This document shows, piece after piece, positions 21,036-21,506 of a stretch of 25,468 nucleotides of DNA. Location of the stretch: UHGV virus genome UHGV-0122056; one strand, 5' to 3'. The translations under genes and the position numbers were made by a program. Under the pieces are notes generated by a model. The model saw nothing but the letters and a program-made list of their open reading frames with translations, was not told where the DNA came from and did not search any database. The number at the start of each line of letters is the position of its first letter. Position 1 is the stretch's first letter. This DNA comes from a virus.

Positions 21036-21124
21036 CTTTTCAAACACCAGGAAAGTGCAAAAACCAAATATGTAGAATGCAATATTCATCATATCTCTTT
21101 GCATAAATCCTCCGTAATGGATGG

Positions 21125-21385
21125 TTAGTTGCTGTCTTTTTTATATAGCTCCTTGAGCGTATCAAAGACAATTTTCTTAACCATATCAGATTGTTGTTCT
21201 GCCATACGCTCTGCATCGTCAATGTAAACTGATGCAGAGCTTTGTTTATCCAATGATTCTTCAATCGCTGCAATTATCTCTGAGTTCAGCGACCTGTTAT
21301 TCATCTTCGCACGCTGCTTAATTTTCGCGTGGAGTTCATGCGGAAGTCTCAAGTGAAACTGCGCCTCGTCGTATTTGCTGTACAT
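21125..21385 (-). CDS. mnt: Mnt-like ribbon-helix-helix repressor
   Basis: C-terminus ...DAERMAEQQSDMVKKIVFDTLKELYKK resembles P22 Mnt as recalled. Start placed at the Met that aligns with the P22 Mnt N-terminus; an in-frame upstream ATG at 21418 would add 11 aa. Confidence 0.7.
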   Translation of the reverse strand: MYSKYDEAQFHLRLPHELHAKIKQRAKMNNRSLNSEIIAAIEESLDKQSSASVYIDDAERMAEQQSDMVKKIVFDTLKELYKKDSN

Positions 21386-21459
21386 CCTTGATGCCTCACC
21401 AGTTGGGTGGAATGGCATCGTAACCTACTGGATAAATACTCAATAGTACCATTTCGGTA

Positions 21460-21489
21460 TGCAATCATATCATGGTTGCATCATATCAT
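21460..21489. promoter_or_regulatory. Candidate operator/promoter element between mnt and the tailspike gene
   Basis: Inverted repeat TGCAAT (21460-21465) ... TTGCAT (21476-21481) enclosing ATCATATC, plus a direct repeat of ATCATATCAT (21464-21473 and 21480-21489). Confidence 0.3.
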
Positions 21490-21506
21490 TCGTCTGGAGC
21501 AATGAA

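Follow-up and report, generated by a model that had tools for sequence, protein, structure and literature searches.

The mnt homologue that lies between the last ejection-protein gene and the tailspike gene of this P22-like genome probably autoregulates its own small leftward transcription unit through a single predicted operator at 21446-21460, and the two similar palindromic motifs that flank the gene are very unlikely to be a pair of Mnt operators. The window, by which we mean the whole stretch of 25,468 nucleotides analysed here, shows 100% identity with a P22-like prophage integrated between ybhB and ybhC in E. coli A11, and the cassette (at least 80% of the region) was found in at least 135 complete E. 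coli genomes. The features of the region are:

19038-21035, plus strand: gp16-like gene for a DNA ejection/transfer protein (from the list of open reading frames; called ‘DNA transfer protein’ in E. coli A11; Sf6 gene 13 is homologous)
21027-21104, minus strand: unannotated 25-codon hydrophobic open reading frame, MQRDMMNIAFYIFGFCTFLVFEKLF, whose first 28 nt are motif 1 (21077-21104) and whose stop codon overlaps that of the gp16-like gene
21108-21113, minus strand: Shine-Dalgarno (SD)-like GGAGGA, 3 nt before the ATG of the small open reading frame and 11 nt after the mnt stop codon, kept in window-type loci
21125-21385, minus strand: mnt homologue of 86 amino acids, with a ribbon-helix-helix (RHH) DNA-binding domain and a Mnt tetramerisation helix (Pfam and PDB matches)
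21417-21443, minus strand: predicted Pmnt, assigned by homology to P22, with -35 TTGAGT (21443-21438), -10 TACGAT (21422-21417) and a 15-nt spacer
21446-21460, unstranded: predicted Mnt operator, dyad GTACCAT-T-TCGGTAT (core TACC-N5-GGTA), centred on 21453 in the Omnt register
21459-21489, unstranded: motif 2 palindrome ATGCAATCAT-ATC-ATGGTTGCAT (21459-21481) with a direct repeat of ATCATATCAT (21464-73 and 21480-89)
21485-21513, minus strand: sigma-70-like match facing mnt, CTGACA-17-AATGAT (9/12 consensus), a candidate upstream mnt promoter
21507-23486, plus strand: tailspike gene, with a P22-type head-binding domain, a divergent receptor domain and an SD, GGAG, at 21496-21499

The gene 16 to gene 9 interval of P22-like phages has been described as a hyper-variable ‘ant moron’ whose contents fall into ten types among sixteen genomes (PMC2629481). 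The gp16-like gene, the last ejection gene, forms the left border of this slot, and the interval itself, from the gene 16 homologue to the tailspike gene, proved variable here too, being empty in Sf6 and holding other contents in VSe13, JEP4, Gally, HK620, CUS-3, ST104, P22 and epsilon34. Region 21036-21506 is a minimal version of the P22-like ‘ant moron’, which would be expressed independently of its neighbours and play no part in morphogenesis. The left flank of mnt measures 89 bp and its right flank 121 bp, the latter shrinking to 88 bp if the longest reading frame is taken. A sequence-only reading of the region had described a Mnt-like gene standing alone in this position, without arc, ant or sieA; the position holds, but the left flank also contains the 25-codon open reading frame, so that ‘alone’ does not. 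The absences were borne out, as neither annotation nor tblastn with P22 Arc, Ant and SieA revealed any of the three genes in the window or in the whole A11 prophage. Nor were arc, ant, sieA or orf59a found near window-type mnt across the fetched loci, where the only Arc-like matches were the mnt genes themselves, and the list of open reading frames contains no arc-type frame in the mnt-tailspike interval. The A11 prophage has a sieB homologue and, between its lysis and terminase genes as in P22, a Rha-family gene; it has no annotated antirepressor. A scan of 20800-21800 against Rfam (E ≤ 1) did not find the sar antisense RNA and returned a single chance match to a small RNA, and no terminator was found after mnt or within 270 nt downstream of the small open reading frame. 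An in-frame ATG at 21459, which would lengthen the tailspike reading frame by 16 codons, was rejected as an artefact of the frame listing by comparison with the A11 annotation.

The description of the gene as Mnt-like is well founded, since it encodes an intact two-domain Mnt homologue of the Arc/MetJ RHH superfamily, with Pfam and PDB matches to both domains. Its product matches Pfam Arc (PF03869; E = 8.3e-15; 54.8 bits, cut-off 20.4) and Repressor_Mnt (PF11423; E = 3.3e-14), the latter covering the C-terminal tetramerisation helix, the element that sets Mnt apart from the dimeric Arc. P22 Mnt itself (PDB 1mnt) aligned over 74 residues (E = 5e-19), and its tetramerisation domain was also matched (PDB 1qey; E = 1.7e-8). 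The longest mnt reading frame spans 21125-21418 on the minus strand, yet the true start is almost certainly the ATG at 21385, to judge from comparison with homologues: the 97-residue reading from the ATG at 21418 was rejected because homologues begin MYSKYDE, MMYSKYDE or MIYKEDE, and PGAP annotates an 86-residue ‘Arc family DNA-binding protein’ with its ATG at 21385 in E. coli A11. The reading frame is intact in 81 of 82 close loci, and distinct variants comprise 43 synonymous and 37 non-synonymous changes where 19% synonymous would be expected (p = 8e-12), the excess being greater in the DNA-binding half (26 synonymous versus 12 non-synonymous). Homologues with as little as 64% identity, named from E. 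coli, E. marmotae, Klebsiella and Rahnella, share an invariant recognition strand, DEAQFHLRL, while their C-terminal halves diverge. The gene is thus under purifying selection, which is strongest in its DNA-binding half.

The Mnt operator is most likely the dyad at 21446-21460, to which binding is predicted because of its Omnt register, its conservation, its uniqueness and its co-variation with the recognition strand of the protein. In the annotated P22 record the experimentally defined Omnt, CTCAATAGGTCCACGGTGGACCT (CTCAATA, then GGTCCACGGTGGACC), adjoins the Pmnt -35 TTGAGA, and Pant and Oarc overlap, the Arc operator of immI falling between the -35 and -10 of Pant; the Omnt-homologous place in the window reads CTCAATAGTACCATTTCGGTAT. 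When loci were anchored on the shared CAAT, three dyad classes appeared in one register, and each pairs with its own recognition strand: A-GGTCCAC-G-GTGGACC with PHFNFRMP in P22 and epsilon34, A-AGACCAC-N-GTGGTCT with PQFNLRLP in ST104 and Gally, and GTACCRT-T-TNGGTAT with AQFHLRLP in the window, VSe13 and JEP4. In Arc and Mnt, residues of the N-terminal beta-strand set operator specificity, and a Mnt repressor binds as a tetramer to a dyad of roughly 17 bp next to its own promoter. The dyad also outlives divergence of its flanks, being perfect in a Buttiauxella locus (GTACCATTTTGGTAC), retaining TACC-N5-GGTA in a Serratia locus and showing one core change, TACT, in a Citrobacter locus. The right half-site is imperfect (TCGGTAT versus an ideal ATGGTAC), and a G-to-T change is present in two loci.

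Exactly one TACC-N5-GGTA occurs per locus, at a fixed distance from mnt. The window contains one copy against 0.13 expected, and the 47-kb prophage region likewise contains the exact core once, with one-mismatch matches at the level of chance (10 found, 8.3 expected), so that a second operator was not found in the prophage. All 52 viral contigs that carry mnt have a single dyad within 150 nt of the gene. A search of viral contigs for targets in trans returned 68 dyad matches without mnt that look like chance, in unrelated contigs that are for the most part non-enterobacterial; the two exceptions were an incomplete mnt-type contig end and an unrelated repeated element.

The promoters that this operator would serve are less clear-cut. 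The P22 Pmnt is TTGAGA-17-TATCAT in the annotated record and that of the VSe13/JEP4 subtype reads TTGTTG-17-TACGAT, compared with the 15-nt spacer of the predicted Pmnt here. A 15-nt spacer normally makes a poor promoter, so the promoter in use may differ from the one assigned by homology. The sigma-70-like match at 21485-21513 is one candidate, though such matches are no commoner in the region than in shuffled sequences. The motif 2 segment could hold an upstream mnt promoter or a leftward -10, as its ATCATATCAT repeats read TGATATGAT on the mnt strand, like an extended -10, with TGTGAT as the operator-proximal copy in most relatives. In the rightward direction no sigma-70-like site reached the scan threshold anywhere in 20900-21700, including the mnt-tailspike interval, and the proposal that the repressor had been rewired onto the tailspike gene accordingly finds no rightward promoter on which to act. 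The position aligned with the P22 Pant TATATT reads TAAATA and, in our own reading, lacks a -35 match; a rightward promoter overlapped by the Mnt operator, as Pant is, was therefore not found here.

The similar elements that the sequence-only reading had noticed on both sides of mnt are a genuine statistical oddity: ATGCAA-N(8-20)-TTGCAT occurs exactly twice in the 25-kb window (21077-21104 and 21459-21481; 0.12 expected), and none of 100 shuffles reached two copies. Both motifs contain ATCATATC, which occurs five times in the window against 1.1 expected, with three of these copies in the mnt region. Their arms are spaced unequally, by 16 nt in one motif and 11 nt in the other.

Motif 1 covers the beginning of the small open reading frame, taking in its ATG and first nine codons, as read from the sequence: the CAT of its TTGCAT (21104-21102) is the ATG of that frame on the minus strand, 20 nt past the mnt stop codon. 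The frame is intact in 78 of the 79 loci that have the segment, including Sf6, 683R2, Gally, VSe13 and one Escherichia sp. locus (L092). Synonymous changes make up 19 of its 44 distinct variants, against 19% expected (p = 1.4e-4), the best result among the six frames. In most relatives the palindrome is broken by an ATGCAA/ACGCAA polymorphism, which amounts to a choice between the alanine codons GCA and GCG; likewise, ATATTC/ATGTTC in the same motif corresponds to the asparagine codons AAT and AAC. In Gally and VSe13 the palindrome is lost, but the peptide persists, with five synonymous and a few conservative changes. The segment goes with the 3' end of the gp16-like gene, occurring in the mnt-less Sf6 and vB_EcoP-683R2 and missing from Sf101-type mnt loci; altogether motif 1 is absent from 12 of 85 mnt loci and, among the other 73, palindromic in only 14 and non-palindromic in 59. 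No stable RNA hairpin was predicted for it on either strand (z about -0.5 to -0.7). We conclude that a co-oriented gene for a 25-codon hydrophobic peptide (hydropathy over 17 residues, 1.95) probably lies beside mnt; its product may be translated and inserted into the membrane. It was found by tblastn in nine phage records and is annotated in none, and it had no Pfam or PHROG match. Its relatives are mostly very close, and the Sf6 copy has a poor SD.

Motif 2 is a different kind of element, which we interpret from sequence comparison as a short junction segment that probably joins the mnt cassette to the 5' region of the tailspike gene. ATGCAA, its left arm, overlaps GGTATGYAA, the conserved outer flank of the dyad, and this flank is kept in nearly all mnt loci. 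At least 13 mnt loci, although they keep mnt and the upstream dyad, lack both the right arm and the second ATCATATCAT and have P22/HK620-type sequence before the tailspike SD instead. Because E. coli matches break at about 21461 and resume at about 21493 (others end at 21105), the segment behaves as a separate mini-module. Motif 2, and with it the weaker likeness of motif 1, may be a recombination junction or ‘boundary’ sequence, or a hairpin of the late transcript, unrelated to Mnt binding, and we regard this as a serious possibility, though short of an even chance. Besides the match breaks, ‘boundary sequences’ are annotated at the corresponding site of CUS-3, and mnt-less Sf6 carries a related TGCAAT-N8-GGTTGCATC before its tailspike SD within a strong 13-bp hairpin (z = -2.9). 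The plus-strand RNA of the window would form a 10-bp stem there, including one G-U pair (z = -1.8), and in relatives 89% of cells are paired, with variants that are mostly wobble-compatible and, in L092, one compensatory double change (ATTCAAT...ATTGAAT). Against this, the covariation is weak (35 of 500 shuffles reached the observed score), the hairpin has neither a U-tract nor a known function, and the overlap of the left arm with the conserved operator flank ties motif 2 partly to the mnt cassette. This interpretation is compatible with autoregulation by Mnt and is not a true competitor to it. The signs of constraint on motif 2, namely the double change in L092 and the wobble-compatible single changes, lie outside the autoregulation model.

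Under that model, one Mnt tetramer would bind the one 15-bp dyad GTACCAT-T-TCGGTAT, adjoining the Pmnt -35, and so control a leftward unit of mnt and possibly the small open reading frame in an autoregulatory loop of either sign, expressed from the prophage. The tailspike gene would be served by read-through from the late operon, as in P22, and motif 2 may contribute a leftward -10, a hairpin in the late mRNA, or both. Since Pant, arc and ant are gone and the prophage has no second dyad, only the leftward mnt unit is left for Mnt to control. The suggestion that the repressor had been kept without its usual target and regulates its own transcription is upheld to this extent, self-regulation being its most likely role. 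A gene whose sole target is itself is hard to justify evolutionarily. More speculatively, and with considerable doubt, mnt and the 25-codon open reading frame might form a two-gene prophage cassette in which an autoregulating RHH repressor determines how much of a small membrane peptide is made. If so, the peptide could for example block DNA entry of related phages or be toxin-like, the orphan Mnt would have been repurposed from control of an antirepressor to control of a micro-gene, and Sf6-like phages would retain the peptide gene alone, at the end of gene 16.

An alternative interpretation is that Mnt acts elsewhere, either in trans, where it would repress the ant promoter of superinfecting relatives with the same operator type and so shield the prophage from induction, or on late read-through into the tailspike gene, but we consider this unlikely. 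A precedent exists in P22, where the Mnt of a resident prophage represses ant on an incoming P22. Late transcription would also pass over the predicted operator, 47-61 bp before the tailspike start codon, and a possible influence of Mnt and Arc on tailspike read-through was proposed for P22 by Villafane et al. (PMC2629481). However, the search of phage contigs turned up no dyad next to an ant-like gene and none at a distance from mnt. In JEP4, which has the same Mnt class, a separate gene for a C2-like repressor adjoins the Rha/KilA genes, and a single dyad, beside mnt, occurs in the retrieved JEP4 sequence, which covers mnt as well as the Rha/KilA genes. Late transcription complexes modified by Q are, moreover, generally resistant to roadblocks.

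Less likely still is that mnt is a decaying, functionless remnant of a full immI (mnt-arc-ant) on its way to the empty state of Sf6. No target genes are left, the Pmnt spacer is 15 nt, HK620 has annotated remnants of mnt and ant, and the authors of the phage L study raise this possibility for their own mnt homologue (PMC8022706). The intact frame in 81 of 82 loci, the synonymous excess (p = 8e-12 overall and stronger in the DNA-binding domain) and the invariant recognition strand nevertheless argue that the gene is not decaying, as do the conservation of recognition strand and dyad over four genera and the presence of at least 80% of the region in 135 E. coli genomes.

The proposal that the two TGCAAT-ATCATATC-TTGCAT elements are a pair of Mnt operators controlling the tailspike gene, mnt or both is highly improbable, for although they bracket mnt, are statistically unusual (2 found, 0.12 expected) and include in motif 2 a good palindrome between mnt and the tailspike gene, their arm spacing is unequal (16 versus 11 nt), motif 1 lies inside a conserved small open reading frame with synonymous-biased variation and is mostly non-palindromic or absent at mnt loci, at least 13 such loci lack the right arm of motif 2, both motif types occur in Sf6 and 683R2 without mnt, and neither motif resembles any Mnt-class operator, the Omnt-homologous place being occupied by another dyad. 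L092, in which both arms of motif 2 have changed and motif 1 is unchanged, further disfavours one protein reading both motifs.

An orphan mnt beside the tailspike gene is already published, and the present locus is an ordinary addition to that known arrangement; as the variability of the slot is likewise published, our understanding of P22-like phages is unchanged. What is modestly new is a predicted third natural class of Mnt operator and a candidate micro-gene that had gone unannotated. A tempting call of two operators is corrected and replaced by a concrete predicted operator for a widespread E. coli Mnt class, which together with P22 and ST104 would give three natural protein-operator pairs that differ at known recognition positions, a useful natural experiment on RHH specificity. 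The analysis also flags a conserved, unannotated 25-codon open reading frame beside the ejection gene in Sf6-like and related phages, and shows that database labels of Mnt homologues (‘partition protein ATPase’) can mislead.

The locus shares with P22 a leftward mnt between gene 16 and the tailspike gene, the combination of RHH domain and tetramerisation helix, and a single dyad in identical register that abuts a TTGAG-type Pmnt -35. It differs from P22 in its recognition strand (AQFHLRLP versus PHFNFRMP), its dyad (GTACCAT-T-TCGGTAT versus GGTCCAC-G-GTGGACC) and its Pmnt spacer (15 versus 17 nt), in the lack of Pant, Oarc, arc, sar, ant, sieA and orf59a from the window, and in the 25-codon open reading frame that follows mnt. 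The gene 13-gene 14 interval of Sf6 has a homologous flank at the 3' end of the gp16-like gene, including the small open reading frame with motif 1, and the related TGCAAT-N8-GGTTGCATC element before the tailspike SD, but it has no mnt and no dyad, the SD of its small open reading frame is poor, and the element upstream of its tailspike gene sits in a much stronger 13-bp hairpin.

The closest relatives of the cassette are in Sf101 and IME10, where mnt, dyad and motif 2 are nearly identical (96-97% nucleotide identity). IME10 also has motif 1 and the small open reading frame, and the site is unannotated there, whereas Sf101 has another, longer upstream gene, without motif 1 or the small open reading frame, and its mnt is annotated as a ‘partition protein ATPase’, a misnomer; the papers on Sf101 and Kapi1 do not mention the mnt gene. 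ST64T, ST104 and phage L have mnt without arc or ant (PMC2629481; PMC8022706). These are Salmonella phages with the recognition strand PQFNLRLP, another operator, and orf62 between gene 16 and mnt, whereas the host here is E. coli and the interval holds mnt and the 25-codon open reading frame only. In both groups an mnt unaccompanied by arc or ant is the immediate upstream neighbour of the tailspike gene and is transcribed away from it, and between the two genes lies a dyad, which in ST104 reads AAGACCACCGTGGTCTT.

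Mnt and its homologues carry the product name 'partition protein ATPase' in RefSeq and in PHROG-derived annotation, and the GenBank name of the Sf101 homologue is 'putative chromosome segregation ATPase'. The ATPase label is a propagated misannotation, the real product being a ribbon-helix-helix repressor of 83-97 aa, and the genes so misnamed are the following:

P22 (NC_002371; L097), 14519-14770
Sf101 (L001), 1507-1800
epsilon34 (L100), 2537-2788

The tailspike gene raises a separate question of its start codon. The ATG at 21459 in motif 2, the palindrome between mnt and the tailspike gene, lies in the tailspike frame with no intervening stop (window 21459-21506), and mechanical ORF lists therefore give a 675-aa product; a start at 21459 was ruled out, as homologues and PGAP begin at 21507.

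On the other side of mnt, one conserved but unannotated reading frame adjoins the gp16 stop codon:

window 21027-21104, minus strand, hydrophobic 25-codon ORF, MQRDMMNIAFYIFGFCTFLVFEKLF

Its Shine-Dalgarno (SD) sequence in the window is GGAGGA, it is also carried by Sf6, 683R2, 720R6, Gally, VSe13 and IME10, and its variants show a synonymous bias (p = 1.4e-4).

Only one mnt locus, the viral contig IMGVR_UViG_2660238499_000007 (L050), holds a second TACC-N5-GGTA, the core of the predicted Mnt operator dyad; it lies downstream of mnt (2889-2901), where the left flank differs from that of every other locus, and is probably a chance occurrence. An unrelated repeated element, TGTGTACCGTTTCGGTATGTATATACAGCCATAGAC, which includes the perfect dyad TACCG-TTT-CGGTA, was observed in viral contigs of GC about 0.54 (L107, L112, L138, L149, L173 and L189), each with two copies spaced 515 bp. 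No Mnt homologue was found near these copies, and in L112, the one contig for which ORFs were listed, both stand immediately upstream of a small leftward gene.

Further features were taken from the identical prophage as annotated in E. coli A11, where it is integrated at ybhB/ybhC, adjoining an integrase remnant:

window about 4413-4568, plus strand, genes for tRNA-Asn and tRNA-Thr, with the Q-like antiterminator gene on one side and the holin gene on the other
window 23557-25467, minus strand, 636-aa acyltransferase gene, directly after the tailspike gene

The acyltransferase gene, whose start codon forms the window end, is likely O-antigen-modifying.

The promoter homologous to P22 Pmnt (window 21417-21443) has a spacer of 15 nt in the window/Sf101 subtype versus 17 nt in the VSe13/JEP4/L018 subtype (VSe13 and JEP4 being L003 and L004), because of a 2-nt deletion (GTAACC versus GTAAAACC), and it is the short-spacer subtype that carries motif 2 with TATGAT elements. 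A small hairpin was also observed in the mnt 5' leader, immediately upstream of the SD (window 21386-21412, minus strand; ST104, L010, 3385-3415); its sequences are unlike (CACC-CAACT-GGTG in the window versus CACTT-ACAA-AAGTG in ST104), pairing is present in both, and a common GAGGCATCA then follows in both.

Hairpin-forming capacity was likewise seen, in all subtypes, in the ~45 bp segment preceding the tailspike SD:

Sf6 (L002), 1243-1284, stem of 13 bp (z = -2.9)
HK620 (L009), about 1470-1490
window, 21459-21481, stem of 10 bp

Such a hairpin may be a general feature of late mRNA upstream of the tailspike gene. The P22/HK620 type is CCGTAGC-CAT-GCTGCGG, and the differences from it in the Buttiauxella and Citrobacter loci keep the pairing.
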